Virus record (IMG/VR): IMGVR_UViG_3300045988_092366
Reading direction: 5' to 3' (one strand)
DNA length: 64,000 bases
Source: a virus
In this document: piece by piece, positions 6,745 to 38,096 of the stretch
Numbering within the stretch: position 1 is the first letter of the stretch
Layout of the letters: each line of letters starts with the position of its first letter
Translations under genes and position numbers: made by a program
The notes under the pieces: model-generated
Told to the model about the DNA's origin: nothing
Seen by the model: the letters and a program-made list of their open reading frames with translations, nothing else
Databases searched by the model: none

Positions 6745-7857
6745 TTAAATTTTTATCCACAACTTACATCTTGAATCTGTTGGCTGAGTAGATGAAACTT
6801 GAACTGAATATTCAGTGTTTGCACTTCCAGCAGTAGTGGCATATTTAACTGATTGAGAACCAATATCAGCTGATGTAATACATTGACCGTAATATGAATC
6901 GTCTGAGTTGTATAGAGAAACATTGGGAGTGCCGTTTAAACCTTTAATGCAAAAGGCACCACCCTTATTATGGTCGCCAATAGCTGCATCATCGCCAACG
7001 ACATACCAAGTATTGTTTGCGAAATACGGTTCTAGCTTAGAAGGAAAATCACTGATTTGAGCTCTAGTATGCGTGTGACTGGCTGCGGCTGCACCAAGTT
7101 CAGATAAGGTAGGTTTATCGTCACTTGTATAAACTTTATACCAGCTATTCCAAGAAGAAGCAGATAAGTCTGAACCACGTAAAGCCAAACGTGGATGTCC
7201 TTCGCTTGCGTATCCAAAAGCAAGTTGATAACCATGACCGCCAGAAGTTTCACTCCAAGGAGCTAAAGATAAAACGCCACAAAAAGTTCCATTACATCCA
7301 ATAGGAGAATTAATTTTACTTGCAGTCTTAAAATCAACAGTCAATTTATTTTTATCGAATCCAGCGTCTTTTGGCGCAGGATTCTCATTTCTTGTATCTG
7401 CAACATCAACACCGTCAGTAGAACTAGATTTTGTAGCAGTATTTGCCACGTTAGCGCTGTTAGCGGTATTAGCTGTTTTAGCTGAATTAGCAGTATTGGC
7501 TGTGTTTGCGGAATCAGCTGTTGTAGCAGTATTAGCTGTATTTGCACTTCCTGCTGAATCAGCATATCCCGCAGACATTTTTTCCCACGTGCTAGAACCT
7601 AACGCTCTTTTATATAAATAAGAGACTGCTCCATCTGGAATAGCAATTTGAAATGGAGTGCCAATATCTGCATCGGTGAACACACTTGCCCATCGATTAA
7701 CGGGAGAAGACGCATTGCCACCAGTTGACGGCACTCCCCTAACAACATAATAACCAGTTTTGGTATGATTATCTAGATTCGTATCAGTTGTTACTGTTTC
7801 TGTCAACAGCGGTATTTTAGAAAATTCACTACCATCAGAAAGATAAAGTTCAGCCAT
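6745..7857 (-). CDS. Tail fibre paralog (370 aa): N-terminus MAELYLSDGSEFSKIP, C-terminus ...QPTDSRCKLWIKI, internal (S/T)ANTAN tandem repeats
   Basis: Conserved end modules shared with 20594..21145 and 21231..21746. SHTHT His motif. Confidence 0.5.
   Translation of the reverse strand: MAELYLSDGSEFSKIPLLTETVTTDTNLDNHTKTGYYVVRGVPSTGGNASSPVNRWASVFTDADIGTPFQIAIPDGAVSYLYKRALGSSTWEKMSAGYADSAGSANTANTATTADSANTANTANSAKTANTANSANVANTATKSSSTDGVDVADTRNENPAPKDAGFDKNKLTVDFKTASKINSPIGCNGTFCGVLSLAPWSETSGGHGYQLAFGYASEGHPRLALRGSDLSASSWNSWYKVYTSDDKPTLSELGAAAASHTHTRAQISDFPSKLEPYFANNTWYVVGDDAAIGDHNKGGAFCIKGLNGTPNVSLYNSDDSYYGQCITSADIGSQSVKYATTAGSANTEYSVQVSSTQPTDSRCKLWIKI
7435..7560 (-). repeat. Coding tandem repeat (gtattagcNgt)n giving ANTANTATTADSANTANTANSAKTANTANSANVANTA
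   Basis: Near-identical 9-18 nt units read directly. Confidence 0.5.
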
Positions 7858-7892
7858 TTAAATCAATCAAACTAGTTGACGTGGGCTTAAAG

Positions 7893-7901
7893 CCCCCCCC
7901 A
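7893..7901 (-). repeat. G9 homopolymer tract (C9 on plus), 36 nt upstream of the fibre gene start, inside mini-ORF MQTYTSWGGALSPRQLV
   Basis: Counted in the sequence. Flanked by the small palindrome gggctt-a-aagccc. Confidence 0.9.
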
Positions 7902-7936
7902 AGAAGTGTAAGTTTGCATAAAAATTCCTTTCAATC

Positions 7937-9133
7937 TTAAATTTTAATCCATATCTTACATGTATCGCTAGTAGGCTTTGTGCTAGATATGGTTATAATA
8001 TCGCTCGCTGCCTTGGCATTGAGCTTTGTGTTCATTTCACTTTCAGTATAGTAGCGGTCATCGTGAGAATGGCTAGAGTTGGCTTTACCGTTTAGTTTGG
8101 TATTAACTTCACTTTCAGTGTAATATCTATCATCGTGAGTGTGACTTGGAAGGTCAGCTGCCACAAGTTTTCTAAACGATGCTTTTCCGTTGGAACCACT
8201 TGGAGCAGCTAATATAGTATTAGCGGTTCTATCTGTTTGAGCACTATAAATATATGAACCCCAGTCACTAACATCTGTCATTTTGTGAGTGTGACCTGAT
8301 GGAGAAAACGTTGAAGGTTTACCACTAACATTACCCCATGAGACACTATTGGCAGAACCAGCACTGCTAGCATATGCAACTTTACCAATATCATAACCAG
8401 TAGCTTGTGCAGTGTATGCCCTTGTATCCATTGCAGCTCGGGGTTCATCGTTCATTAGCTGCCAAGAAGAGCCGTTACCACCACGAGTGCTGTTTGCTAA
8501 AATTCGGATATTACACGAATTATATGTACCAGTAGCATGAAAATATAAATCAGCATATCCAACAGTTGATTTAGCAGAATGTATTTTTAAAATAAATTGG
8601 TCTGGTTCATATCCATATCTACAAAGCCATTGAACAGTTCCATGAGTAGCCACAGCGCTTTCAGATACATTCTCATTGCGGAAACGGACTGCTAGAATGC
8701 CAAATCCACCATTTTCGTAACCAGAATCTACACACAATACAACGCTACCATCGAACCAATTTTGCGCTGATTCTATTTTCAAACAACGCCAATATGGTTT
8801 AGCAGCGCTAGATTGAGTAACATATCTTACAGTGCCATTTAGAGATTTTGTATAATTGGCAGTTCCAGAAATATTACATGTTACAACATTTCCTTCTGGA
8901 TTATATTTAAAATTATCATTATGGACTCTGTGAGTGTCATTGCCACTATCTGAAAACCAAATTGGCCTTAATGCATTTGCTGTCGCATTACCATAATTTT
9001 TTACAGCATTAGCAGCACCTCCTGCGGAATCTGCACCCGCATAATTATGGCTATGACTAGCAGCTGCTGCTCCCACCATGTCTGGAGTCCACTCTTTAAA
9101 AGACCCACCGCTAGGATAATATGCTTTAGCCAA
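7937..9133 (-). CDS. Tail fibre (398 aa), TTG start, HxH repeats 'SHTHDDRYYTESEVNTKLN', C-terminus ...KPTSDTCKIWIKI
   Basis: TTG start directly preceded by ATG-TAA. The repeat motif is shared with 9202..11337. Confidence 0.5.
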   Translation of the reverse strand: MAKAYYPSGGSFKEWTPDMVGAAAASHSHNYAGADSAGGAANAVKNYGNATANALRPIWFSDSGNDTHRVHNDNFKYNPEGNVVTCNISGTANYTKSLNGTVRYVTQSSAAKPYWRCLKIESAQNWFDGSVVLCVDSGYENGGFGILAVRFRNENVSESAVATHGTVQWLCRYGYEPDQFILKIHSAKSTVGYADLYFHATGTYNSCNIRILANSTRGGNGSSWQLMNDEPRAAMDTRAYTAQATGYDIGKVAYASSAGSANSVSWGNVSGKPSTFSPSGHTHKMTDVSDWGSYIYSAQTDRTANTILAAPSGSNGKASFRKLVAADLPSHTHDDRYYTESEVNTKLNGKANSSHSHDDRYYTESEMNTKLNAKAASDIITISSTKPTSDTCKIWIKI

Positions 9134-9141
9134 TTACATCG

Positions 9142-9151
9142 CCCCCCCCCC
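9142..9151 (-). repeat. G10 homopolymer tract, 9 nt upstream of the TTG start, inside mini-ORF MKNILTQRTFSEVCWGGGDVIG
   Basis: Counted in the sequence. Confidence 0.9.
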
Positions 9152-9201
9152 AGCAGACCTCACTAAAGGTGCGCTGTGTTAAAATATTCTTCATATTATC
9201 A

Positions 9202-11337
9202 CTATACCTTAATCCATAATTTACAAGTACTTGCGTTAGGCTGCGAAGAAGATACGATAACCTCTTCTGGTCGCCAAGTATTGGTGTTGGTATCTGTAAG
9301 AGCAATAGTCGCGTTACCAGACTGATTGAGCGTAAAACTGCCCTTATTCGTACCATTCTGTGTGATTGTAACAGTGCCATTACCAACAGAAGGAATTGAC
9401 GGTCTGCCAGAAATTTCAGACCAAGAATAGGAAGGTTTACTTGAAGCCTTAGCCCAAGCATAAACGTCACTAGCTGGCATAGAGGACGGTCTACCAGAAA
9501 CATTGCTCCATGCGACAGAACCAGCTGTGTTAGCATGACTTACAGATTGCGAACCGATAGTAGCAGAAGTGATAATTTCCTGCGAGCTGCCACCAGTAGG
9601 TAGATAAGTCGTATTGGTAGAATTCTTGCCAGCATTAAAATTAGTATCTGTATCGTAAGCGAATACTAGGCGTTCATCGCCTGCTAAGTTGCCGACAGTC
9701 CAAGCGCCCTTAGCTGTCTTTTGACCTACAACTGGATTGTATGACTGTGAATTGGCAGTAGAACCAAAAACGATAGCATTAATACGACCTTGAATCCAAC
9801 TGCCACCAGCACCACGAAGGATGCGGCCAGTCATTGTACCACCAGCAAGAGGTAGATAAGAGTGAGAGTGGCTTGCAGGAGCAGCACCTACATCACCAGC
9901 AGAAAGTGTGATATTAGCACTTAAAGCCTTACCATTGACTGTGCGGCTAGCTGGAACATATGAACTAAACTTATCGTTCAAGGCTTTACCCTGTGCCGCA
10001 GACAGTGATTGGTCGGTAGCAGTAGAAGTAAGATTATTCTGAACAGGACGCCAAGTATTTGTATCTGTAGAATGTACTGTAATATTACCACTTGCGTCAG
10101 ATGTTACAGAAGTAGCGCCAGTACCTTTAATAACCACACCACTACGGAAAGTATTATTATCTGTAACATTGATATAAGTGTTACCGTTTGTAGTAGCAGC
10201 ATTTGCAGTGCCACTTTTTGCGCCAGCTACGATATTGGTAGTATAATGAGTATTTGTATCTGTCTTTGGCGGGGTGTAGCCAAGAGCAGTAGTAACATTA
10301 GCGCTTGTAAGTTCGCCACGAATTGTCGCAGAAGACTTATTCTCTACACTACCAAGACCCAAATCGGCTTTTGTAGTCTTGTGCGGATTGCCAGTAGATG
10401 TGGAGTGGTTATATGCAGCACGAGATTCATCACCATAACCAGCAGTGGAATGAGTTGTACCGAGGGCAATAGTTTCAGAAATTACGACATATGTGCTACC
10501 GCTCCAACGATAGGTTTTGTTGTTGCTAAGGTCAACATAAATCTTACCAGCTTCGGCTTTGATTTCACCAGAATATGCGCCACTAGAGCTTTTTGTGGTA
10601 TAGAATTTGCCACCATTTAAATAACCTTCGATAACATCATCGACATAGCTTGGAAGATGCGCTGCATCAATTACACCGCTAATGCGCGAAGCAGGAAGAT
10701 TACCACTAACTTCACTAATAGTATAGCTAGGCTTGCTTGACTGCTTAGCCCATGAATAGACATCGCTCGCTGGCATACTAGTTGGGAAGTCTGTAATCTG
10801 AGCTTTTGTATGTGTGTGGCTTGAATTAGCTTTTGCATTCAGCTTTGTATTGATTTCGCTCTCAGTATAATACCTATCATCATGAGTATGGCCTGTATTA
10901 GACTTGCCGTCAAGTGCAGATTTAATGACCTTATTCTGTACAGGATTCATTGAAGTAGTAGAAAGTTCTGCATCAACAGTAACGTGATTTGAACCTGCGG
11001 CAACACCGTCAAGTTTAGCCTTGTCTGCGGCAGACATAAGACCTGCGGCACTGGCAGTAGCATTGCCGTATACAGTATTTGAATCTGTAACATTAAATGT
11101 GCTACCATCGCTACCTCTAAGAGTGATTGTACTACCGCTCTTGGTTAAGTTATAAGTTGTATTTGTATTGATATTATCTTTAATCTGAATCAGAGAGGAT
11201 GAAGAAATACCCATCCACAAAGTGCCGGTATCGGTGGCAACATACAATGCACCGTCCAATACTTTATTTTCGGCAGTGAGTGCTTTGATATTAGGTTCTT
11301 TATCTCTGATAAATTTTACTCTTGCTATCTTGCTCAC
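9202..11337 (-). CDS. Long tail fibre (711 aa) with internal repeats (SGRPSSMPASDVYAWAKxSSKPSY), C-terminus ...QPNASTCKLWIKV
   Basis: Repeat motifs and 'HTHDDRYYTESEINTKLNAKANSSHTH' are shared with 7937..9133. Confidence 0.55.
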   Translation of the reverse strand: MSKIARVKFIRDKEPNIKALTAENKVLDGALYVATDTGTLWMGISSSSLIQIKDNINTNTTYNLTKSGSTITLRGSDGSTFNVTDSNTVYGNATASAAGLMSAADKAKLDGVAAGSNHVTVDAELSTTSMNPVQNKVIKSALDGKSNTGHTHDDRYYTESEINTKLNAKANSSHTHTKAQITDFPTSMPASDVYSWAKQSSKPSYTISEVSGNLPASRISGVIDAAHLPSYVDDVIEGYLNGGKFYTTKSSSGAYSGEIKAEAGKIYVDLSNNKTYRWSGSTYVVISETIALGTTHSTAGYGDESRAAYNHSTSTGNPHKTTKADLGLGSVENKSSATIRGELTSANVTTALGYTPPKTDTNTHYTTNIVAGAKSGTANAATTNGNTYINVTDNNTFRSGVVIKGTGATSVTSDASGNITVHSTDTNTWRPVQNNLTSTATDQSLSAAQGKALNDKFSSYVPASRTVNGKALSANITLSAGDVGAAPASHSHSYLPLAGGTMTGRILRGAGGSWIQGRINAIVFGSTANSQSYNPVVGQKTAKGAWTVGNLAGDERLVFAYDTDTNFNAGKNSTNTTYLPTGGSSQEIITSATIGSQSVSHANTAGSVAWSNVSGRPSSMPASDVYAWAKASSKPSYSWSEISGRPSIPSVGNGTVTITQNGTNKGSFTLNQSGNATIALTDTNTNTWRPEEVIVSSSQPNASTCKLWIKV

Positions 11338-11352
11338 ATCCTTTCTGATATA

Positions 11353-12114
11353 TTATTTAATAGAAGACCAAGTTAAATCATCTGGCGTAGCAAAATCAGA
11401 AGCATCATGATATGCGGCAGATTTTAAACCATATACTGCCACAGATTTATCTTTAACTTTAATTGTACCATTTGCAGTGCCAGTAGTGATAGATGGAACT
11501 GTCAAAACATCAGATGGCAAAATGCCGCTTGCAACGGTATCGACATATGCTTTAGTGGCAATGTCATTATCGTCATTGATGACTTGACCAGCCGCGTATT
11601 TAATTTTACCAGATAAAGTACCACCAGTAAGAGGAAGATATTTCGCTTTCTCTTGGTCGGTATATGCCTTTGCATCTTTAAGGGCTTTATCTGCCTTTAC
11701 TTGTGCGTCTGTTGAAGACGCACCAGATGCAGTCTTAATTGCTGAATTCATCTCACTCTTGGTTGGATAGTTCGATAAGTCGGTCTTAGAGCCACCTAGC
11801 TTTTCAAACTTACCATTAACCCAAAAATATTCAGTATATTCATTGCTGGATTCAGTCAAATCTGGCAACATATAAATTGTATTTTCTTCGCCAGTAGAAG
11901 GAAGAGTTGACCCTTTTGCCAGCACAACACGTTTAAGATGCGGCGCACCTGCTACTGCATTTGCAATAGCCGTGTTCATAGCATCTTTTTTAACATATTC
12001 TGCTGGAACTTTATCACTCGGAATGTTAACATCCCAGTTAATATCAGAAGCATCTACGAGTTTGAAAGTGCCGTTATTCTTTTGTTTGATTTTATCAATA
12101 AGTTGAACAGGCAT
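11353..12114 (-). CDS. Fibre-like protein (253 aa) sharing a 'HLKRxxL...TIYM(L/V)PD' domain with 12957..14369 and 14812..16164
   Basis: Motif comparison by eye. Confidence 0.4.
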   Translation of the reverse strand: MPVQLIDKIKQKNNGTFKLVDASDINWDVNIPSDKVPAEYVKKDAMNTAIANAVAGAPHLKRVVLAKGSTLPSTGEENTIYMLPDLTESSNEYTEYFWVNGKFEKLGGSKTDLSNYPTKSEMNSAIKTASGASSTDAQVKADKALKDAKAYTDQEKAKYLPLTGGTLSGKIKYAAGQVINDDNDIATKAYVDTVASGILPSDVLTVPSITTGTANGTIKVKDKSVAVYGLKSAAYHDASDFATPDDLTWSSIK

Positions 12115-12932
12115 TATTTCACCTCCACCGTAGTTGCACCTAATCCTGCATTAGTTGACCTATAGATATTATAAGAAGCGGTATAGCCACTTGCATTTGT
12201 GAAATCAAAAGTCTTTACTTTGTTGAAGCCACCCTCGAAACCTCCAACATAAAATGCGGGAGTTCCAAAAGAAGCAGGAATAGCAAAATAAATATACTGC
12301 TCAGCATTAGCTGTGACGCTCCATGAACCCGTGCGACCAGACACTAAATTTCTAGTAAGCCCTTTGACAAACGCCGCATCTATCTTAGAAGTATCTGTTA
12401 TATTGCTCACGCCATAGTATTTACCATTTAAAAAGTAAATTGTAGTCTGCTTAGTAGATGTGGCTTTGCGAGCGTCAGTAGCAGTCAAAGTAAATGCGGT
12501 CGTTGCGGTAAGAGGTGCCGCAAATGTAATTGCCGCAGTTCCAGATTGCGTCTTGTTGATTTCAAATGATTGACCACCTGCTGTAATTGTCAGTTTAGAA
12601 GGTTGTTTATTCAAATTCCAAGAGAAGTTGGAAGATGGAAGACGAGAACCTATTTCAAGTGTGCCGCTATTGTTAGAAAAACTATTAACGGACATTGCTT
12701 TATAAATTGAAAGTGTGCCGTCAGAGGTAATATCAAAATCTCCGCTTGGCTTGATAATACCTGCGGCAGAGCCGGTGGCAATTTTAATATCGCCACAGCT
12801 GTATTTGATATTATTTTTCATGATACTCGTGGTATCTGAAAGAAAATAGATTCCGTTGGGGTCTATTTTGGTAGACCCCAACGCATCATACTCTGATTGC
12901 ACGCCTGTGTAAAATCTAATATCAGCAGACAT
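12114..12932 (-). CDS. Fibre/baseplate-associated protein (272 aa)
   Basis: Start overlaps the preceding stop. Confidence 0.3.
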   Translation of the reverse strand: MSADIRFYTGVQSEYDALGSTKIDPNGIYFLSDTTSIMKNNIKYSCGDIKIATGSAAGIIKPSGDFDITSDGTLSIYKAMSVNSFSNNSGTLEIGSRLPSSNFSWNLNKQPSKLTITAGGQSFEINKTQSGTAAITFAAPLTATTAFTLTATDARKATSTKQTTIYFLNGKYYGVSNITDTSKIDAAFVKGLTRNLVSGRTGSWSVTANAEQYIYFAIPASFGTPAFYVGGFEGGFNKVKTFDFTNASGYTASYNIYRSTNAGLGATTVEVK

Positions 12933-12956
12933 ACAATCTCCTTAATCTAATTTAAA

Positions 12957-14369
12957 TTAGAGTGTTTGCCATTCAATTAGGCCGTTAGCATATTCTTTAG
13001 CAGAAGCAAGAGCGTTATTGGCCTTAGTTGTAGCATCTGCGGCAGCAGCGTCAACGGCTTCGGTCTTTTTTGTGTCAGCATAGGTTTTAGCTTCAGTAAG
13101 AGCACCAGCAGCAGCACCAGAAGCATCAAAGGCACCGCTGTTTTGATAAGCAGCAGAGCCTAGACCCTTAACAGCAACGTCTGAACCCTTAACAGAGATT
13201 GTACCATTAGCAGTGCCAGAAACAACATCTGCGGCCTGAACAGCAGAGTCAGCTTTGGCGCCTTGGGCGGCAGTAGCATAATTCTTGGCTAGACCATCGG
13301 AATAAGCCTTGGCATCTTCAAGAGCCTTATCAGCTTTTTTACCAGCTTCGGTAATAGCAGCAGCTTGAGCAGCGTCAGCCTTTGTGGTGGCATCTGCTGC
13401 GGCGGTAGCAATGGCAGCAGCCTTAGCGGCATCTGCCTTAGTCTGAGCGTCAGTAGCAGCTTCACCCTTAGCGGTAGAGATAGCATCAGTTACTTGGTCT
13501 TTGGTGAAGTAGTTGCCAAGGTCTACGTCAGAAGTACCAATACGCTCAAAGGCACCATTGACAAGCATGTATTCAGTATAAACAGACTTGTTGGAGCCTG
13601 CGGTATCGGTGCTACCAGCATCGGGAACCATATAGATAGTATCTTCGTTGGCTTCGGAAACCTCGGGAAGAACGCTAACGATTTCACGCTTGAGGTGGTG
13701 CGCATTAGCTACGGCAGCAGCAATAGCGGTATTGGCTTCATCCTTTGTATAGGCATCGGCGATACCGTAACCAGCAAGGGTAGTAGCTTTGTCAGCTTTC
13801 TTGTCGATGTTGGCCTGTAGCTCGGTTTTAGCAGCGGTAACCTGTTTGGTGGTTTCAGCAGCAGCTGCTTCAATAGCTTCTGTCTTCTTAGTGGCAGAAT
13901 CAGCTTTGGCATCTTCTAGAGCTTTGTCGGCTTTAGAAGTGGCGTCTGTGGCAGCGGCGGCGATAGCAGCAGCCTGAGCATCAGCGGCAGCTTTCTTGAT
14001 AGAGCCTTCGCCCTCACCTTGAATAACCGTTAATTTTCCATCTGCGGCAGAAATATTATTTTCAGCAGTAGTAACACGCTGGGTAAGAGCAGAAAGGTCT
14101 GCGGCAACGGTTGTTGGCTTAACAACTGTAATATACTTGGTGCCGTCCCAATAGGCAACGTTGTCTCCATTATCACCTACAATATATAGGGTATTAATTT
14201 TACCCTGCGTAGGAAGTGCGCTTACTTTTTCGTAAATACCACCAGAGTATGGTGTATTACCTTTGTAAATGCGCTGCTCTTCTTCTACAAAATAAAGAGT
14301 ATTAGCGTCTTTATTTTCAAGGCCTTGGTAGCCAGCAAGAGTAGCAGCTACAAATTTAACTTGACTCAT
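12957..14369 (-). CDS. Tail fibre paralog A (470 aa), Ala-rich coiled-coil with AKAYTD/KADKATTLAGYGIADAYTK motifs
   Basis: Shares protein motifs and about 100 nt of DNA similarity with 14812..16164. Confidence 0.45.
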   Translation of the reverse strand: MSQVKFVAATLAGYQGLENKDANTLYFVEEEQRIYKGNTPYSGGIYEKVSALPTQGKINTLYIVGDNGDNVAYWDGTKYITVVKPTTVAADLSALTQRVTTAENNISAADGKLTVIQGEGEGSIKKAAADAQAAAIAAAATDATSKADKALEDAKADSATKKTEAIEAAAAETTKQVTAAKTELQANIDKKADKATTLAGYGIADAYTKDEANTAIAAAVANAHHLKREIVSVLPEVSEANEDTIYMVPDAGSTDTAGSNKSVYTEYMLVNGAFERIGTSDVDLGNYFTKDQVTDAISTAKGEAATDAQTKADAAKAAAIATAAADATTKADAAQAAAITEAGKKADKALEDAKAYSDGLAKNYATAAQGAKADSAVQAADVVSGTANGTISVKGSDVAVKGLGSAAYQNSGAFDASGAAAGALTEAKTYADTKKTEAVDAAAADATTKANNALASAKEYANGLIEWQTL

Positions 14370-14380
14370 TCACGTCTCCT

Positions 14381-14803
14381 TTAAATAGTTGTCCATTCTG
14401 TATTATTAGCAACACACATATATGTATGAAGGGCCGCATTCCATTTATAAATTGCTTTATCGGCAATATATAACATAGTTTCTTTTCCTTCTTTTGGAAA
14501 ATCTTCAACAGAAGTACCAAAAGCTATGGTTTGTAAATTAGAAGGAGTAAGCTGTTTCCACCCGTCTTTATAACGCCACATTACGCCAGTTTCTTCTACA
14601 TAATAGTAGCCTTCAACTGGCGCTAATTTATCAATTCTATCTTTGTCTGTAGGAAATTCTTGGATACAATTGTATTTAATTCGTAGACCGTTATAATCTA
14701 AATAGAGTTGACGTGTATCGGAAACAAAAACTAAATTTCCATCGCTAACTGGTAATTTATTTAATTTTGCGGCCACAGTTGTATATACACGAACTACAGC
14801 CAT
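14381..14803 (-). CDS. Hypothetical small structural protein (140 aa)
   Basis: ORF in the operon. Confidence 0.3.
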   Translation of the reverse strand: MAVVRVYTTVAAKLNKLPVSDGNLVFVSDTRQLYLDYNGLRIKYNCIQEFPTDKDRIDKLAPVEGYYYVEETGVMWRYKDGWKQLTPSNLQTIAFGTSVEDFPKEGKETMLYIADKAIYKWNAALHTYMCVANNTEWTTI

Positions 14804-14811
14804 TTTAACTC

Positions 14812-16164
14812 CTAAACTTCTACAATTGTTAAAGCGTTATCCGTGTAAGTTTTAGAAGTTTCAATGGCTTCTTTCTTTGCTGCTGCAATTGCTTCTGCAC
14901 TAGCAGTTCCACCGGAACCTACGCTTGTATCAATATACTGCTTAATAGTAGTACCTTCGGCAATGTCACCGACTTTTTCAGAAAGAATAGTCTTTACTTG
15001 AGCAGCATCGACTTTAGTATTTAAATTCTCTTGGATGGGAGAAATTTGACCATCGGTATATGCTTTAGCTTGTTCAAGTGTCGTAGCACCTTGCGTATCG
15101 GTATATGCTTTTGCATCTTCAAGAGCTTTAGCAGCGGCACCAGCTTTTTCATAATTAGCAGCAAGACCGTCGGCATATTCTTTTGCGCTTGTCAGAGTGG
15201 CAGTATCTTTTTCAACAGCAGCGGCAATGGCAGCAGCTTGAGCCGCATCGGCTTTTTTCTGCGCTTCTGCAATTGCAGCAGTTTGTGCGGTATCTGCCTT
15301 GGTCTGAGCGTCAGTAGCGGCAGCATCAATTGCAGCTTGCTTGGCGGTCGCAACTTCATCTTTAGTCGCGTAATCAGAAAGGTCTACCTTACTGTCACCG
15401 ATTTTTTCAAATTTCTTGACTTCACTAGCTACAACGAGAATGTATTCATCATAATGGTCATCAACTGGAACCATATAGATAGTATTAGCATCAGCTTCAT
15501 CGACAGCAGGGAGAGCATCGACAATAGCACGCTTTAAATGGTCTGCTTTCGCAATAGCAGAAGCGATTGCAGTATCAGTTGCTTCTTTTGTATAAGCATC
15601 AGCAATGCCGTATCCAGCCAAAGTAGTTGCTTTATCAGCCTTGTCAGCGACAGTAGTATCTGTATATGCCTTTGCATCTACAAGAGCTTTCTTTACAGAA
15701 CCTTCACCTTCACCAGTCAAGCTATCTAATTTAGCTTGAATAGCTTCAATGGTTGCTTTAAGATTCTCAACTTGTTCAAAAATTACCTTGAAACCAGAAC
15801 CAGTATAGATATATCCTTTGTTATCTGTAGTATTAATATAGATAACACCTTGTTCTTGGTCGGTTTCTGGAAGAGCTTCTACTACCTTAACATACTCTTT
15901 TACCTTGGTTGGGTCAATTTCACCATCAATTCCAATAGGAGAAAGATTAAAACCTGTACCCTCAGCTTTTGGTTGAAGCATATATGCTTTATACTTACCA
16001 TCAACCAATGCGGTAATGACTTGACCGCCATAAGCAATAGCTGAATCTGCATAGGTCTGTGCGGCTGCTAATGTCTCATGGACACTCGAAGCATCAAGTG
16101 GAAGAGCATTACCACGAGAATAGGCTTTTACAGCAACCAATAGTTTTGTGCTATCAATAGCCAT
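14812..16164 (-). CDS. Tail fibre paralog B (450 aa)
   Basis: Same motifs as 12957..14369. Confidence 0.45.
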   Translation of the reverse strand: MAIDSTKLLVAVKAYSRGNALPLDASSVHETLAAAQTYADSAIAYGGQVITALVDGKYKAYMLQPKAEGTGFNLSPIGIDGEIDPTKVKEYVKVVEALPETDQEQGVIYINTTDNKGYIYTGSGFKVIFEQVENLKATIEAIQAKLDSLTGEGEGSVKKALVDAKAYTDTTVADKADKATTLAGYGIADAYTKEATDTAIASAIAKADHLKRAIVDALPAVDEADANTIYMVPVDDHYDEYILVVASEVKKFEKIGDSKVDLSDYATKDEVATAKQAAIDAAATDAQTKADTAQTAAIAEAQKKADAAQAAAIAAAVEKDTATLTSAKEYADGLAANYEKAGAAAKALEDAKAYTDTQGATTLEQAKAYTDGQISPIQENLNTKVDAAQVKTILSEKVGDIAEGTTIKQYIDTSVGSGGTASAEAIAAAKKEAIETSKTYTDNALTIVEV

Positions 16165-16180
16165 AATTTATAACTCCTTT

Positions 16181-17185
16181 CTAAATGGTTACTGTAAATG
16201 TCATTGGAGCTGCGGCAGGAGCAGCCATAGCGTAGCTATAGACTTTATAGTTTGCAGCTGTTGCTCCGTTGGCACCTTCGACAGACACGGTCTGCTTGGC
16301 AAAGCTAGAAGCCATGCTAATATCATTTGTTTCTTCATATTTCACTTGGCTTACATCACGAAGAGCCGCAGGATAGGCGAAAACAATATATTGTTGCCCT
16401 TGAGCGACTTTAATGGTAAGTTTGGTACCAGCAGTAGGATTAAGAGACTTACCAGTAAGACCACGTACAATTGCAGAATTTAGCTCAGGTACAGAGCCTA
16501 CACCAGTGCCATAAAAGGCATTTCGCTTTCCAACATAAGAAAGTGCATTTGATGTAATAGAACCAGCAGTAATATGACCAGCTGGGGAATCATCTCCAAG
16601 ATTATCTTGCTTGATTGCACCCTCGGCATAAGAAGCAATAGCTTTAAAAGAAGTGGTACCTTCTCCAATAGTAATTGAATGGTCAGATAGAACTAGTGGG
16701 CTAGTAGTACCCTCAAGTACGTCTACAGTACCATCAGAAATTTTAATTGCGGTAAGAGCGCCAGCATCTTGCTTCGTAAAGTTTGCTGTCATTGTTGCTG
16801 CAAGGGTAGTACCAACTTCATAATTGCCCGGTTGAGCGCCTTTTGAAACCGCAAGAGAAATCTTAGGTGCAATATATGTAGCAGGTACACGTTTCATAAT
16901 AATCTTTTTAATTAATGCATCTAAATCAGTACCAGCTTCAATAACATCGCCAGTCTTGATACCGCCAACACTTCCACCAACGCCTAGTTGAACAGTGTGA
17001 GCCTGTTTAGATTTAGCGTTGCCAAGTGTATGCGGCACTTTAGAATCATCTACATAAATCATATTATCTTCTGTAGAAATAACGACACTATTTGTACCAA
17101 TAGTCCCAGCGGTAATACTATCATTTAGTTTTGTTTCAGAACCATGAAAAAAACTAATTTTTTTTGCATTTTCTGCATCAGCCAT
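16181..17185 (-). CDS. Fibre/baseplate protein (334 aa), Gly/Thr/Ala-rich
   Basis: ORF with AGG-type RBS. Confidence 0.35.
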   Translation of the reverse strand: MADAENAKKISFFHGSETKLNDSITAGTIGTNSVVISTEDNMIYVDDSKVPHTLGNAKSKQAHTVQLGVGGSVGGIKTGDVIEAGTDLDALIKKIIMKRVPATYIAPKISLAVSKGAQPGNYEVGTTLAATMTANFTKQDAGALTAIKISDGTVDVLEGTTSPLVLSDHSITIGEGTTSFKAIASYAEGAIKQDNLGDDSPAGHITAGSITSNALSYVGKRNAFYGTGVGSVPELNSAIVRGLTGKSLNPTAGTKLTIKVAQGQQYIVFAYPAALRDVSQVKYEETNDISMASSFAKQTVSVEGANGATAANYKVYSYAMAAPAAAPMTFTVTI

Positions 17186-17248
17186 ATGTTTGTAACCCCT
17201 CTCTATTGAGTATAAAAATTTTTATATATATAAAAATAAACCATATAG

Positions 17249-17857
17249 CTAAAATTCTCGAATCTTAACTTCTGCGCTGATAGCTATCTGGTCTAATTTA
17301 TTTTCTACTGAAACGGCTTTATCATATGCACTTGTTGCAATTTGTTTGATTTCTTTTGTTTCCTTTGTCCATTCTTGAAATTCTTTACGTTGTTCATTCA
17401 TTTGTTTTTCCATCTTGTCCCCAAGAGTAGCAAGATGGATTACAGCATTTTGAAAAGCGCTAAAATCATCAGAAACGACAAACGCAGAGCCGTCATTTGG
17501 GTCGGACAATACATGTACAAGAAAATTCGTGCTAGAAGCAATTGATACCGAATCAACTAATTCGACACAACAAAGCACGTCTCCTTCATGTAACATGGCT
17601 TGCGGCCATTTAATTTCCCATACGATAGGGTCTTCATGTGTTTTTGTAAAAACATTATATCCTTTTATATCTAGTTGAACATGCCGCCAACTCAAATAAA
17701 CTTTTGTATCTGCGACACATTGCGCAGCAGCTTCTTGGTCGAAAATAATTCTAAAAGTACGACCATTTGCATCTGCGCCGCCAGCCACAATAGGGTCTTG
17801 AATGTCTTGGTCAAGAGACTTTAAATTGACTGTAACTGCTTTTAATTCCTGACTCAT
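17249..17857 (-). CDS. Hypothetical protein (202 aa) with coiled-coil C-terminus
   Basis: Start overlaps the stop of the upstream gene. Confidence 0.3.
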   Translation of the reverse strand: MSQELKAVTVNLKSLDQDIQDPIVAGGADANGRTFRIIFDQEAAAQCVADTKVYLSWRHVQLDIKGYNVFTKTHEDPIVWEIKWPQAMLHEGDVLCCVELVDSVSIASSTNFLVHVLSDPNDGSAFVVSDDFSAFQNAVIHLATLGDKMEKQMNEQRKEFQEWTKETKEIKQIATSAYDKAVSVENKLDQIAISAEVKIREF

Positions 17858-18382
17858 TTATTCACCCCTTTCATTGTTCTTTTGGCTTACAATAAATTGT
17901 GGATTGGAAAGATTGATTCTCGGTAGTTCGCGTATCTCTTCCATTAAGCCATCAATGAATGAGTTGCCGCCTGCCGCTTTATAATATAAATATCTACGCT
18001 CTAGAGATTCTAGATTAAGGTCATCAATAGCCTTAATTTCATAGCAAAAATAGTGATGCTTGTCAATGATATAACTGCGGGAGTTCTCCTGCAATCTTTC
18101 AAGAGTAAGTTTTTCATGCTCTTGGAGTGCTTTAATATCATTCGATTGGTTGCTAATTTCTTGGCTAAGCCTTTTAATGTCTGCTTGCAACGAAGCAATA
18201 CTTTCTATAATCTCAGAGTGCTGTGTATCTTTAAGTGTCTGATAATTGAAGAATTTTTTTAATTTATTATAAAAATATTCCAATAGTTCACTTAAAAATT
18301 TAAAAGCAACAGCTAAAGTCACAACTAGCATAACGATAGCTCCGAAAGAGTATTGCGACACTAGTTGCGACAAAGCATCCAT
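17858..18382 (-). CDS. Membrane-anchored coiled-coil protein (about 175 aa, start at MDALSQ...). The ORF track over-extends it through a terminator.
   Basis: TM helix FGAIVMLVVTLAVAF followed by a long coiled-coil. Preceded by the terminator at 18462-18493 and an AT-rich promoter-like spacer. Confidence 0.35.
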   Translation of the reverse strand: MDALSQLVSQYSFGAIVMLVVTLAVAFKFLSELLEYFYNKLKKFFNYQTLKDTQHSEIIESIASLQADIKRLSQEISNQSNDIKALQEHEKLTLERLQENSRSYIIDKHHYFCYEIKAIDDLNLESLERRYLYYKAAGGNSFIDGLMEEIRELPRINLSNPQFIVSQKNNERGE

Positions 18383-18461
18383 TCTCGGCAATATCCCTTC
18401 TTCTCTACATAATCTAATATAATATGAAAATAATTTATATTTGATTTTAGGAATTTGCCCA

Positions 18462-18493
18462 TAAAAAAATGAGGGAAACATAAAGTTTCCCTC
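18462..18493 (-). terminator. Rho-independent terminator inside the tip-gene array
   Basis: gagggaaac-ataaa-gtttccctc followed by a T-run on the minus strand. Confidence 0.65.
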
Positions 18494-18505
18494 GAATAAA
18501 ATAAA

Positions 18506-18892
18506 TTAAGCGGTTCTATGCCACACATAGCAATTTTGATAAGCTGGTAAATTATTATGAGCTTTTCCGTCACCTTTTGATTCTACATATTTATCAATAA
18601 ACTTATTAGAATAATCCAAACCAGCCGCGCCAATTTGATAAGGCAAATTGGTAGCAATGTTATTACCAGCTTGCTTAGTTGATATGTGGTGAGTATGAGG
18701 TGGCATTTCACCAACGGTAAGTTTATGTGTGTCTTCCCCGCCGGTATTAGTATTTGTTGAAGCTCGTAGCACTTTATCAGTTATTTGTGTCCAAGTACCG
18801 CCAATACTGGATGCCGGTGAAGCGCTATGAAAAGAAATATATACAGAACCAACAGGGTAGACAATATCCATGAGGTTAACGTAATTAGACAT
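18506..18892 (-). CDS. Short tail-fibre tip/collar-like protein, paralog 4 (MSNYVNLMDIVYPVGSVY...HNNLPAYQNCYVWHRTA)
   Basis: Member of a four-gene tandem family. The second Met is the likely start. Confidence 0.5.
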   Translation of the reverse strand: MSNYVNLMDIVYPVGSVYISFHSASPASSIGGTWTQITDKVLRASTNTNTGGEDTHKLTVGEMPPHTHHISTKQAGNNIATNLPYQIGAAGLDYSNKFIDKYVESKGDGKAHNNLPAYQNCYVWHRTA

Positions 18893-18922
18893 ACGCAACC
18901 TCGCTTAGATTTAGATTGCTTG

Positions 18923-19378
18923 CTACGCTGTGCGATACCAAATAAAGCAAGTTGTGTAAGGTGGCAAGTTGTTGTGTGCTTGCCCCCCCCCATTAGAAGC
19001 AATAGTGTGGGTATGGTTACCAACCTCAGACGTATACTGTCCACCAAACCTACCAACAGAACCAAAATAATTACCAGCACCTTGAAGAACGTTACCTCCA
19101 CCTGGACCGTACCATGCGATAATTCGTTCATCAATACTGTGATTGTGTTTGCCAGCTTCTCCTGTAGAACCATTGTGGCTGTGAGCGGGCATTTCATTAA
19201 GGCTAAGCGTGTGCGTTGCTTCGCCGCCCGTATTCTTGGCGGTTGTAGACCCATAAAGAAAAGTGTTCAATCGTGTCCAAGTGCCACCAATAGAGCTAGC
19301 AGGAGATGTTGCATCCATGCTCTGATAGATTGAACCTACTGGATATATAATATCCATGAGGTTTACAAAATTACTCAT
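18923..19378 (-). CDS. Short tip/collar-like protein, paralog 3. Contains an in-frame G9 tract coding GGG 17 codons before the stop.
   Basis: MSNFVNLMDIIYPVGSIY...ASNGGGQAHNNLPPYTTCFIWYRTA. Confidence 0.5.
   Translation of the reverse strand: MSNFVNLMDIIYPVGSIYQSMDATSPASSIGGTWTRLNTFLYGSTTAKNTGGEATHTLSLNEMPAHSHNGSTGEAGKHNHSIDERIIAWYGPGGGNVLQGAGNYFGSVGRFGGQYTSEVGNHTHTIASNGGGQAHNNLPPYTTCFIWYRTA
18983..18991 (-). repeat. G9 homopolymer tract inside the CDS 18923..19378, about 90 nt upstream of the next paralog's start
   Basis: Counted. Encodes Gly-Gly-Gly. Confidence 0.9.
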
Positions 19379-19422
19379 TTATATCCTTTCTAATTGCATA
19401 GAAAGAATATTATAAAATCTTC

Positions 19423-19878
19423 TTAGGCTGTTCTTTTATATACTGCTAAAGAATAATGATATGGAATATGCTCTTGTTGTTCGGTAACAAAATGTCCGTT
19501 ATCATTAAGTTTCCAAGTACCTTTAGTCCACAAATTCCAACCAGTATCGCCACCATCTTTAGTACCGACTGACAATAATTGCCATAAACTACCAGCAGCA
19601 GCATTAGTATTCCAAAAACCAATACCTGAATATTGTTGCAGTTTACCATTCCAACCAACAACATTGTGCTGATGGTCTGGTATGGCTAGCGAAGAAATCA
19701 TATTGCTACCAGAAAAACGTCCAGCTACGTTATAGGTATCACCACTTGCCGCAAGCAAACAATTTTCTATTTTAGTCCAAGTTCCGCCAATACTACTCGC
19801 AGGAGAAGTACTAGAAGTACTAAAGTATATACTACCTACTGGATAAATAATATCAAGAAGATTTACAAAATTAGACAT
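19423..19878 (-). CDS. Short tip/collar-like protein, paralog 2
   Basis: MSNFVNLLDIIYPVGSIYFS... Confidence 0.5.
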   Translation of the reverse strand: MSNFVNLLDIIYPVGSIYFSTSSTSPASSIGGTWTKIENCLLAASGDTYNVAGRFSGSNMISSLAIPDHQHNVVGWNGKLQQYSGIGFWNTNAAAGSLWQLLSVGTKDGGDTGWNLWTKGTWKLNDNGHFVTEQQEHIPYHYSLAVYKRTA

Positions 19879-19931
19879 GGTAAATCACCATGCTTAGAAC
19901 AGCCATTGAAGAAGAAGCTACATTATTGTAG

Positions 19932-19941
19932 CCCCCCCCCC
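19932..19941 (-). repeat. G10 tract, 54 nt upstream of the start, inside mini-ORF MKNLMTNHGRWGGGYNNVASSSMAVLSMVIYHV whose stop overlaps the main ATG
   Basis: Counted. Confidence 0.9.
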
Positions 19942-20007
19942 AACGACCGTGATTAGTCATTAAGTTTTTCATAATATCCTTTCATTTAGGATATTAGATT
20001 TTAGATT

Positions 20008-20388
20008 TTAAGCAGTTCGTACCCAGACTCTACAAGCATATGAATAAGGATAATAATCAAGTCCTCTTCCCTCGGTACTAGTATATTTGGTAACGAATAT
20101 GCTACTGTCGTCAAGTCCACCGCCACCCCATTGGTACGGCCAATCATTATTAACGCCATTACCAGCATGTTTATTTGTGGCAGAATGTTTATGTGCTGGC
20201 ATTTGGTCAACTGTAATATGTTTGCTGCCCGTATAACCAGAAGTACTAGTATATGCGGCCAAGCAAGCGCCATCTTTAATCTGTGTCCAAGTGCCACCGA
20301 TAGACGTTGCAGGTGAAACAGTGCTAGTAGTAATATACATACTATTTATAGGATAAATAATATCTAAAAGATTTACAAAATTGCTCAT
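20008..20388 (-). CDS. Short tip/collar-like protein, paralog 1 (strong RBS AAGGAGG)
   Basis: MSNFVNLLDIIYPINSMY... Confidence 0.5.
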   Translation of the reverse strand: MSNFVNLLDIIYPINSMYITTSTVSPATSIGGTWTQIKDGACLAAYTSTSGYTGSKHITVDQMPAHKHSATNKHAGNGVNNDWPYQWGGGGLDDSSIFVTKYTSTEGRGLDYYPYSYACRVWVRTA

Positions 20389-20466
20389 TATTCAACCTCC
20401 TTATTTGGGAGGTCATCTAAAATCATAATATCAAATTGATTTATAGATTTTAAGCTACCGCAGTAG

Positions 20467-20475
20467 CCCCCCCCC
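20467..20475 (-). repeat. G9 tract followed by hairpin gctac-tgcg-gtagc, inside TTG mini-ORF (M)TSLGGGLLR
   Basis: Counted. The same G9+hairpin unit recurs at 21188. Confidence 0.9.
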
Positions 20476-20531
20476 TAGAGAGGTCAATTCATTAAATTTA
20501 TTCACATAAAACTCCTTTTCTTTCTTAGAAT

Positions 20532-20566
20532 TATATTCTATATCTATATGAAAAAAGGGCAAAACC
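20532..20566 (-). terminator. Rho-independent terminator after 20594..21145
   Basis: gggcaaaatcctgttacgggttttgccc followed by T6 on the minus strand. Confidence 0.65.
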
Positions 20567-20593
20567 CGTAACAGGATTTTGCCCAAAGTTATA

Positions 20594-21145
20594 TTAGATT
20601 TTAATCCACAATTTACATCTTGAATCCGTTGGTTGCGCAGATTGTACCATAACGCAATATTCATTATCAGCACTGCCAGCTTTTGTCGCATAGCTCGCCG
20701 AGCTTGCACTGCCAGCACTGGCCGCATATTTCACACTCTTGGATGAATCAGCCGTATTATCGACATTGCCCAATCCAACAGAAGATTTAGAAGGAGGATA
20801 AGCGTTTGTATAAAATTCCTCTACAGAGATAACAGAACCATTCGAGTAAGTCACTCTATAAGCCTTGCCCGGGCCAGTCATAGGAAATAACAATAAATTA
20901 CCATATTTATAATTATCTTCACCAACACCAGTCCTATGCGGCACATATAAATAATTATACCAAGAGCCACCAGTAAAGCTCAATCTTTTCTCTTTTGACT
21001 GATTGAACATACATGACCCTAGCGATGGAGGTCTATTCACTAATTTTACAATTAAATCATCTATTGTGTCCGCATTATTTTCTTGCGCTGTCATAGCTGG
21101 GATTACAGTAAAATTCTTCCCATTTGAAAAATAAAATTCGCTCAC
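20594..21145 (-). CDS. Tail fibre paralog (183 aa), GTG start, N-terminus MSEFYFSNGKNFTVIP, C-terminus ...QPTDSRCKLWIKI
   Basis: Conserved end modules. Confidence 0.5.
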   Translation of the reverse strand: MSEFYFSNGKNFTVIPAMTAQENNADTIDDLIVKLVNRPPSLGSCMFNQSKEKRLSFTGGSWYNYLYVPHRTGVGEDNYKYGNLLLFPMTGPGKAYRVTYSNGSVISVEEFYTNAYPPSKSSVGLGNVDNTADSSKSVKYAASAGSASSASYATKAGSADNEYCVMVQSAQPTDSRCKLWIKI

Positions 21146-21187
21146 TCCATATCATATAGAATGGTATCTATAGAGCTACCGCAGTAG

Positions 21188-21196
21188 CCCCCCCCC
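21188..21196 (-). repeat. G9 tract plus gctactgcggtagc hairpin, inside mini-ORF MFINLLWDGGGLLR (with an AAAGGAG RBS)
   Basis: Counted. Confidence 0.9.
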
Positions 21197-21230
21197 ATCC
21201 CATAAAAGATTAATAAACATATTTTCTCCT

Positions 21231-21746
21231 TTAAATCTTTATCCATAATTTACAAGTAGAAGATGTAGGCTGAGAAGATGATACGGTGACAATATCATTG
21301 GCCGCATACTGAGAATGCGTATGCGATGCTTGTGCAAACATATTTTTATTGATTGTTTTTAATGTATTACCATCATACGCAGCTATCCAAGTGAAGCCAG
21401 AATAGGGCAAGTCCTTAGCGCTATAAGAAACTTTTAAATCACGCCCATCGCCAGAGTCTTTGATTAAACCAGCTTCATTAGCATATTTTACTAATTTATC
21501 CGCATCGGCTGTGTTATCAACAGCATTAAGACCTAACCACTTTTTATATTCTGTCTTAGATACGTCTTTAATTTTCTTATCATTGCTTAGTCCAAGAGCA
21601 TAAGTAAAATCTGCGGCAGTAAAACTAGACCCAGACCATCCTAGCTTGATTACATTATTCGGATTATTGTAATCTCGCACGCCGTCAGCTTTAGAAGGGA
21701 CAAATTCAGAAAAATTCGTCCCATCGCTTACCATAAAATCAGCCAC
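21231..21746 (-). CDS. Tail fibre paralog (171 aa), GTG start, N-terminus MADFMVSDGTNFSEFVP, C-terminus ...QPTSSTCKLWIKI
   Basis: Conserved end modules. ASHTHS His motif. Confidence 0.5.
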   Translation of the reverse strand: MADFMVSDGTNFSEFVPSKADGVRDYNNPNNVIKLGWSGSSFTAADFTYALGLSNDKKIKDVSKTEYKKWLGLNAVDNTADADKLVKYANEAGLIKDSGDGRDLKVSYSAKDLPYSGFTWIAAYDGNTLKTINKNMFAQASHTHSQYAANDIVTVSSSQPTSSTCKLWIKI

Positions 21747-21779
21747 ACCTATCAGCTAAGCTATTTAGCGGGGCAGATG

Positions 21780-21788
21780 CCCCCCCCC
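21780..21788 (-). repeat. G9 tract inside mini-ORF MNNTFLGGGICPAK, preceded by an ATG-TAG start-stop
   Basis: Counted. Confidence 0.9.
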
Positions 21789-21815
21789 AGAAATGTGTTA
21801 TTCATATCTACATCC

Positions 21816-38075: not shown

Positions 38076-38096
38076 TGTCAACTCCTTTTCAATCCA

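Follow-up and report, generated by a model that had tools for sequence, protein, structure and literature searches.

Length-variable poly-G runs in short leader reading frames as candidate translational gates of tail-fibre and tip proteins in a large gut phage

We analysed a stretch of 64,000 nucleotides (nt) from the virus record IMGVR_UViG_3300045988_092366 of IMG/VR (the window, hereafter), in which seven runs of eight to ten guanines are confined to the region encoding tail-fibre and tip proteins. Six of the runs lie between genes, each within a short leader open reading frame (ORF) headed by its own Shine-Dalgarno (SD) sequence, and in most types of junction one of the three frames leaving the run stays open as far as the start codon of the following gene. 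We regard the chances as about even that these runs are contingency loci gating the translation of alternative fibre and tip proteins through the frame of the leader. Judged from the sequence, a frame-dependent translational-coupling switch is a plausible description of how they would act. The genes between about 6.7 and 47 kb are all encoded on the minus strand, and the C runs reported in a first-pass annotation are G runs in the sense of the mRNA. The runs are:

7893-7900, minus strand: G8 run, intergenic
9142-9151, minus strand: G10 run, intergenic
18983-18991, minus strand: G9 run, inside the Gp10_C gene 18923-19378
19932-19941, minus strand: G10 run, intergenic
20467-20475, minus strand: G9 run, intergenic
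21188-21196, minus strand: G9 run, intergenic
21780-21788, minus strand: G9 run, intergenic

The 64-kb window contains no other run of at least seven G or C. The pattern G8 matches 15 times where dinucleotide shuffles lead to an expectation of 0.22, and every match is on the coding strand. The runs are slippable homopolymers (about seven bases or more), far above chance and located at host-interaction genes, as contingency loci are. Across the window and about 40 related loci, some 90 runs are all G on the coding strand and in no case C. The earlier observation that the tract is always read as Gly-Gly-Gly after Trp or Leu is the trivial outcome of a G run with a T before it.

The leaders of the six intergenic runs, checked by translation, are:

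21761-21805, minus strand: leader MNNTFLGGGICPAK, SD AAGGA, ATG 21805, G9 run 21780-21788
21176-21220, minus strand: leader MFINLLWDGGGLLR, SD AAAGGAG, ATG 21220, G9 run 21188-21196
20455-20505, minus strand: leader VNKFNELTSLGGGLLR, SD AAAGGAG, GTG 20505, G9 run 20467-20475
19871-19972, minus strand: leader MKNLMTNHGRWGGGYNNVASSSMAVLSMVIYHV of 33 codons, ending in VIYHV, SD AAGGA, ATG 19972, G10 run 19932-19941
9126-9194, minus strand: leader MKNILTQRTFSEVCWGGGDVIG, weak SD AAGG, ATG 9194, G10 run 9142-9151
7887-7919, minus strand: leader MQTYTSWGGL, SD AAAGGA, ATG 7919, G8 run 7893-7900

The first of these leaders starts directly 3' of the stop codon of the fibre gene 21816-23375, and GTG 20505 of the third overlaps an ATG-TGA start-stop. 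In the sequence as it stands, the upstream ORF overlaps the downstream start at two of the six junctions: the TAA of leader 19871-19972 (G10) overlaps ATG 19878 by 8 nt, and the TAA of leader 9126-9194 (G10) overlaps TTG 9133 by 8 nt, both at position +5 of the start codon. We call the frame that ends in this way the coupled frame. The remaining leaders stop upstream and would reach the coupled frame at other run lengths. At G9, leader 21761-21805 stops 17 nt 5' of GTG 21746, and at G8 or G11 the stop falls at +5, overlapping the start; leader 21176-21220 at G9 stops 33 nt 5' of GTG 21145, and G8 or G11 brings a GTGA stop/start overlap; leader 20455-20505 at G9 stops 69 nt 5' of ATG 20388, and at G8 or G11 it reads across CCTCCC and AAGGAGG to a TAATG overlap with that ATG; leader 7887-7919 at G8 stops 32 nt 5' of ATG 7857, and G7 or G10 places the stop at +5. 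The first-pass annotation had the leaders ending at or just short of the fibre starts; those with the runs at 9142 and 19932 do end on the start, and those with the runs at 21780, 21188, 20467 and 7893 do not. The leader it gave before ATG 7857, ending in GGALSPRQLV with a stop 9 nt from the start, requires a G9 run where the window has G8.

Between junction types the leader peptides are mutually unrelated, so that the conserved feature would be the act of translation, not the peptide. We considered whether a leader could be the true N-terminus of its fibre gene and rejected this, as stops occur in all three frames from G(n-2) to G(n+2); with stops in every frame at any run length, the six intergenic runs are not mis-annotated in-ORF switches. 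Reassignment of a stop codon was likewise rejected, as TAA, TAG and TGA all occur among the intervening stops and translation table 11 reads ORFs as long as 2960 amino acids (aa) normally.

The genes upstream and downstream of the runs are, in transcriptional order:

21816-23375, minus strand: 519-aa tail-fibre gene, Phage_fiber_2 (Pfam) and PHROG tail-fibre matches, 8-nt SD
21231-21746, minus strand: 171-aa fibre-module gene, GTG start, no SD, N-terminus VADFMVSDGTNF, C-terminus CKLWIKI
20594-21145, minus strand: 183-aa fibre-module gene, GTG start, no SD, N-terminus VSEFYFSNGKNF, C-terminus CKLWIKI
20008-20388, minus strand: Gp10_C tip-domain protein 1 (Pfam PF21939), 126 aa, ATG start
19423-19878, minus strand: Gp10_C tip-domain protein 2 (Pfam match), 151 aa, weak SD GGTGA
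18923-19378, minus strand: Gp10_C tip-domain protein 3 (Pfam match), 151 aa, carrying the intragenic G9 run
18471-18892, minus strand: Gp10_C tip-domain protein 4 (Pfam match) from ATG 18892, then a terminator at 18471-18493
7937-9133, minus strand: 398-aa fibre protein (PHROG match), TTG start, no SD, C-terminus CKIWIKI
6745-7857, minus strand: 370-aa fibre-module gene, ATG start, no SD, N-terminus MAELYLSDGSEF, C-terminus CKLWIKI

No SD precedes GTG 21746, GTG 21145, TTG 9133 or ATG 7857, which are four of the six run-associated genes, three of them using GTG or TTG; ATG 19878 has a weak SD only. An SD of at least 4 nt is found in about 33 of the 45 other genes of the window, and only about two have no SD at all. 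In a Firmicute-like host, GTG and TTG starts that lack an SD are expected to be poorly used unless they are coupled. The TTG start of gene 7937-9133 is kept in all relatives. Gene 21816-23375, upstream of the whole series, has a strong SD of its own, no poly-G run and the C-terminus VKIWVQI. The earlier description of the fibre starts as often TTG or GTG without an SD holds for 21746, 21145 and 9133, and ATG 7857 shares the missing SD, but it does not hold for 19878, an ATG with a weak SD, nor for 20388, where the SD is perfect.

For comparison, IMG/VR provided 35 loci at the neighbouring gene for a 764-aa baseplate protein, on contigs of about 90-147 kb, and more loci around the 398-aa fibre gene; about 40 related phage contigs were compared overall. 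A metagenome scan added four contigs, one of them labelled human gut, all with G9 at the 21780-type junction, and hairpin-pattern scans of IMG/VR returned no contigs beyond those already collected. A cultured relative was sought with a 14.5-kb DNA region and the 764-aa baseplate protein, with no match among 50,697 phage records.

Among near-identical genomes with conserved flanks, the length of the runs varies from G7 to G11, with one G20. The 21780-type junction occurs with G8, G9, G10, G11 and G20 in the relatives and the 7893-type junction with G8, G9 and G10. The G20 run, at position 14220 of contig L026, belongs to the first junction; it is twice as long as usual and leads into the coupled frame. 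We then took, at every intergenic junction, the best start codon led by an SD and read from it through runs of length n-1, n and n+1. In 11 of the 13 junction types of the window and its relatives, one frame is open to the downstream start, with its stop at +5 (ATGnCTAA, GTGGCTGA or TTGGCTAA), +1 (GTGA) or -2 (TAATG), corresponding to overlaps of 8, 4 and 1 nt. The two uncoupled frames stop 17-69 nt earlier, often within the hairpin 3' of the run. Shuffled spacers would be expected to provide a coupled frame in 6.3 of the 13 types (P=0.002). A leader SD with an ATG is present in 12 of the 15 types of 5' flank, compared with 0.069 at random positions. Conservation of the leader ORFs in homologues, which the first-pass annotation had named as one test of its model, is found for the SD and the ATG, but the peptides are unrelated and a few leaders are broken.

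Three further comparisons concern the junctions. At the 9133 junction, the relatives are coupled at G9 with a 21-nt spacer, whereas the window lacks 13 nt of the spacer before TTG 9133 (atcagtagccaat) that are present in all relatives (L037-L046, L085); together with G10 in place of G9, this deletion keeps the same coupled frame at TTG 9133. The loss also puts the G10 run 8 nt from TTG 9133, where the run could itself serve as an SD-like sequence. An ATG-TAA micro-ORF that had been noted before this TTG is not kept in the relatives. Secondly, the two relatives in which the run is interrupted, and thus locked, are both in the coupled frame: in L023 a T interrupts the run (GGGGGTGGGG) ahead of a hybrid 3' flank, and the leader is open to a TAA at +5 of the ATG, and in L001 the run is G7-T-G, coupled through TAATG, with the CCTCC element lost. 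Thirdly, in a clade with 81-98% identity and in one whose baseplate protein is 50% identical (L025, L034), G runs of at least seven are restricted to the coding strand and to the region downstream of the first fibre gene; the 50% clade has the same architecture with unrelated flanks. A clade with 47% identity has no runs, leaders or extra cassettes and only two Gp10_C genes, which start within about a dozen bases of the fibre-gene stop, so that the leader-plus-run device came with the expansion of the cassette array.

From this anatomy we infer leader translation, reinitiation and frame-dependent expression. Ribosomes would load at the leader SD and, in the coupled frame, open up any local structure, finish the leader on the start codon and re-initiate there, yielding the fibre or tip protein. 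Either of the remaining frames would make them terminate early, and the gene without an SD would be translated poorly. Slippage of the G run by one base in either direction during replication of the phage DNA would switch each cassette heritably and reversibly, and expression may be graded over three levels rather than strictly on or off. At some junctions, unmasking of the start or of the SD may help. The outcome would be phage subpopulations with different sets of fibres. In the current state of the window, the genes at 9133 and 19878 would be coupled and those at 7857, 20388, 21145 and 21746 uncoupled. The translational-coupling model of the first-pass annotation is thus strengthened by the coupled frame of 11 of 13 junction types, by the leader SDs and by the starts without SD, but four of its six leaders are at present uncoupled.

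The run at 18983-18991 is of another kind, and its intragenic position had been overlooked when all tracts were assigned to leader mini-ORFs, an assignment that is correct for the six intergenic runs. Read in frame as Gly-Gly-Gly, it precedes the stop of gene 18923-19378 by 22 codons and marks the transition from the variable body of the protein to the conserved C-terminus QAHNNLPPYTTCFIWYRTA. This run is a classical in-ORF switch: an out-of-frame length removes the conserved C-terminus of the Gp10_C tip protein. Its +1 frame (G10) ends at +5 of ATG 18892. Of 17 intragenic runs among the relatives, 10 keep the frame and 7 do not; the out-of-frame tails mostly have their stop at -2 or +5 relative to the next gene, and in the QAHNNLPPY-type run one frame runs far past the start of the next gene.

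Several observations weigh against frame-gated coupling. The permutation signal is moderate, and some of the junction types are related to each other. Counted over 71 distinct intergenic junctions, the coupled frame is the present one in 21, as expected by chance, and in every junction type G9 is the commonest length, coupled or not. The G9 mode fits equally a mutational attractor with default-off accessory fibres and neutrality. Run lengths in short-read assemblies may be off by one, and the leaders of a few relatives (L014, L016) are broken. Within the window, ATG 20388 has a perfect AAGGAGG SD, and at the 21746 junction all three frames stop at most 21 nt from the start, which may make for a weak switch. 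Start regions of run-associated genes are, overall, predicted to be as accessible as those of the other genes of the window. Finally, a pure frame switch leaves the preference for G over C on the coding strand unexplained, and this exclusivity hints at a role at the RNA level that such a switch does not need.

The runs are also recombination junctions between cassettes, which the first-pass annotation had missed. When the flanks are grouped into sequence clusters (u for 5' and d for 3' flanks), the 5' flank of a run stays with the gene upstream and the 3' flank with the gene downstream, and they assort independently of each other, with the run as the exact breakpoint: flank u0 is joined to d0, d2 and d4, and flank d4 to u0, u5, u8 and u25. 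A 23-nt direct repeat, G9 plus CTACTGCGGTAGCT, brackets the cassette 20594-21145 and suggests run-mediated deletion or exchange of that cassette. In L023, recombination took place inside the hairpin and left the hybrid 3' flank. Mosaic breakpoints are seen at the runs 21780-21788, 21188-21196 and 20467-20475 and in L001, L005, L011, L012 and L023.

These junctions could be all there is to the runs. Run and hairpin would then be a hotspot of recombination or deletion marking DNA-level boundaries, the leaders would load ribosomes in every frame, and run length would be mostly neutral. Besides the independent assortment of flanks, the 23-nt repeat and the hybrid flank of L023, this explanation draws on the intragenic runs at the border of variable and conserved protein, on coupled states at chance level and on G9 being modal everywhere. 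It does not account for strong leader SDs with SD-less genes behind them, and it leaves unexplained the one frame kept open to the start, the compensated 13-nt deletion and the coupled frame of the locked variants; moreover, nine bases of homology are very short for homologous recombination. As a full explanation we find it unlikely, and it is compatible with translational coupling rather than exclusive of it. Combining the two, each cassette might be gated by a leader whose frame is set by the G run, as a heritable three-state switch, with at least six such switches forming a combinatorial host-range switchboard and the run plus hairpin acting as a portable, integron-like junction. We advance this wider proposal only tentatively, and consider it doubtful in its entirety.

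RNA structure is best supported at the junction upstream of gene 19423-19878 (type D3). The consensus fold, which is conserved, pairs the G run with CUUCUUC as part of a 23-bp hairpin and places the start codon at 19878 in another hairpin (19875-19893). In L045 the start codon is TTG and both sides of this stem have changed, such that the start codon stays paired through compensatory changes. Folding z-scores are -5.5 at the 19932-type junction and -4.6 at the 21188 junction. Upstream of gene 20008-20388 (type C3), the leader codons UUGACCUCU are the predicted pairing partner of the SD, and CCUCCC that of the G run, a prediction without covariation in the sequences compared. Only a weak hairpin over GTG 21746 is predicted at the 21780-type junction. 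The same hairpin, GCTAC-TGCG-GTAGC, follows the runs at 21188-21196 and 20467-20475, and GGGCTT-T-AAGCCC lies 3' of the run at 7893-7900. Hairpins at or in the run exceed chance in four junction types (B3, C3, D3 and K3) and are absent from three of four intragenic types. Judged from these predicted folds, occlusion of the start by structure is convincing only for 19878 and 21145.

A length-dependent RNA switch would make direct use of such structures: the G run would be the 5' arm of a hairpin, an SD-like sequence or a site for a small RNA (sRNA), and its length would tune folding, processing (e.g., by RNase III) or ribosome binding. Hairpins that start in or after the intergenic runs, the 23-bp G:C/U stem at the 19932 run, the predicted pairing of a run with CCUCCC beside the SD at 20388 and the absolute G-strand bias all fit a role at the RNA level. 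There are precedents in the heptamer repeats of the Haemophilus influenzae hmw1A 5' untranslated region, with an RNase III hairpin (PMC12721329), and in the G-repeat of the Helicobacter pylori tlpB leader, with the sRNA RepG (PMC8295292). As here, those repeats are outside the regulated ORF, in the transcribed leader and in one arm of a hairpin, and the H. pylori repeat is a G run; they differ in acting through RNA structure or an sRNA in a length-dependent manner, whereas the runs described here lie in a leader ORF and their anatomy points to a modulo-3 effect. Adding or removing one G would have a small effect on the stem energy, the hairpins span a mere 5 bp and in most junction types do not exceed chance, and no Rfam or sRNA family was found in the region, apart from a sub-threshold, spurious miRNA match on both strands of the coding repeat 7503-7577. 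The RNA switch would also have no role for the conserved leader SD and ATG or for the open coupled frame. We hold it to be quite unlikely.

Under programmed recoding, a constant share of ribosomes would instead enter the coupled frame in any genotype, by frameshifting on G GGG GGG or by slippage of RNA polymerase (for general background, see PMC5009743), and the efficiency of slippage, not the length of the run in the DNA, would determine expression. The G run is slippery, a hairpin follows it, and the coupled frame is present in nearly all junction types. However, run length varies freely between the relatives and would shift the baseline frame anyway, and transcriptional slippage is best documented for A and T runs. 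The hairpins at or inside the run are also too close for classical frameshift stimulators. Recoding seems very unlikely to us.

Even less credence can be given to phase variation of a promoter spacer, as in Neisseria porA and opc, in which a repeat separates the -35 from the -10 element and its length changes transcription. In its favour are the intergenic position of the runs and, ahead of one of them, a terminator:

20535-20584, minus strand: intrinsic terminator GGGCAAAAC...GTTTTGCCC plus T6, then the promoter-like TTGCCC-16-TAGAAT

This terminator and promoter-like element (20584-20535) is conserved in the relatives. About 60 nt separate the end of the promoter-like site itself (20562-20535), the sole one nearby, from the 20467 run downstream, so that this run is in the transcribed leader. 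In a scan for sigma-70-type promoters only, no hexamer pair spans any of the seven runs, and the remaining runs occupy short gaps of a co-directional operon. Flanked by the strong terminator and promoter-like site at 20584-20535 on one side and the terminator at 18493-18471 on the other, the four Gp10_C genes make up a unit.

The genes flanking the runs are tail-fibre modules, with matches to Phage_fiber_2, Phage_fiber_rpt and PHROG tail-fibre families. Six fibre genes (6745, 7937, 9202, 20594, 21231 and 21816) share the terminal motif (C/V)K(L/I)W(I/V)(K/Q)(I/V), more fully S(S/T)(Q/K)PT..(C)K(L/I)W(I/V)(K/Q)(I/V), and three fibre modules open with a common x-A/S-E/D-F/L-Y/M-x-S-D/N-G motif. 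These conserved ends could dock modules to one another, chaining or branching the fibres. The Gp10_C domain (PF21939) matches four small paralogues, with E-values down to 3e-20. They lie in tandem at 18506-20388, consist of this domain only (126-151 aa) and combine conserved N- and C-terminal strands with hypervariable middles; how such free-standing tip or adhesin-like proteins are anchored is not obvious from their domains. Sequence searches of the PDB gave one weak match to a tail-collar fibre and nothing informative, and the majority of the structural proteins tested against Pfam have no match. Upstream of the baseplate and fibre genes are two giant minus-strand ORFs of 1706 aa (32961-38081) and 2960 aa (38195-47077). 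The fibre gene 6745-7857 contains a low-complexity coding repeat (SANTANTA...) at 7503-7577. In gene 16181-17185, an A run and a T run lie close together near the 5' end (codons 7-13, 17140-17170). They have one length in ten relatives, and in L023 (17065-17095) each is longer by one base and the ORF is N-terminally shortened, which may be an assembly error or a further slippery site.

The phage itself is an uncultured phage of roughly 140 kb, probably of a Gram-positive human gut bacterium. Its endolysin (1110-2156) consists of an Amidase_2 domain and a C-terminal domain about 61% identical to endolysins of the large Lactococcus phages WRP3, AM2 and AM9. The endolysin matches only phages of Gram-positive hosts and is 63% identical to a protein of a Clostridiales metagenome-assembled genome, its best genomic relative. 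These matches suggest a Gram-positive host, and the heavy use of SD sequences agrees with a Firmicute. No tRNAs were found.

For Campylobacter Fletchervirus phages, poly-G phase variation of receptor-binding proteins is reported (cited in PMC10877375, PMC8540345 and PMC12823448), with runs that lie within ORFs and act by frameshift truncation (as described in PMC8540345). The likeness lies in several hypermutable G7-G11 runs per genome, their clustering at receptor-binding or fibre genes and the resulting phage subpopulations. The run at 18983-18991 and its out-of-frame relatives work in that way. By contrast, six of the seven runs described here are outside the fibre ORFs, in SD-led leaders that no run length fuses to the gene, and the host, judged from the endolysin, is Gram-positive. 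In ordinary termination-reinitiation coupling (ATGA or TAATG overlaps, as in trp operon pairs and phage structural operons), cistrons overlap by distances like the 1, 4 and 8 nt of the coupled frames here; also alike are the downstream starts that lack an SD or are not ATG, and one start codon here sits in a hairpin that would be melted by a ribosome coming from upstream. The difference is that the upstream cistron here is a non-conserved leader of 10-33 codons whose overlap is set by a hypermutable homopolymer. The leader peptides of ermC and cat resemble the proposed switch in that the position of a ribosome on a short leader decides the use of a downstream initiation region, but there a ligand or drug stalls the ribosome, whereas the input proposed here is a heritable change in DNA length. 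At H. influenzae lic1, tetranucleotide repeats and alternative starts yield three levels of expression (strong, weak and off). Three phases of a repeat thus lead to three translational outcomes, as proposed here, but the lic1 repeat is within the 5' coding region of the gene itself, with no leader cistron or reinitiation. In the literature searched, we found no description of leader-cistron coupling as a mechanism of phase variation. Phase variation of phage receptor-binding proteins by poly-G runs is therefore known, and the route through a coupled leader ORF is likely new.

If the proposed switch operates, it would be a distinct route of phase variation, in which a repeat controls a gene from outside both the gene and its promoter, and a compact, tunable and heritable translational switch for engineering. 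Annotation would be affected, because GTG and TTG starts without SD and mini-ORFs dismissed as junk would be functional, and so would the prediction of host range from consensus genomes, as one G more or less would mean a different set of fibres. That hypermutable runs coincide with recombination breakpoints is also relevant to the exchange of fibre modules. By way of the switch, large gut phages with Gram-positive hosts would hedge across many receptor-binding proteins at once.

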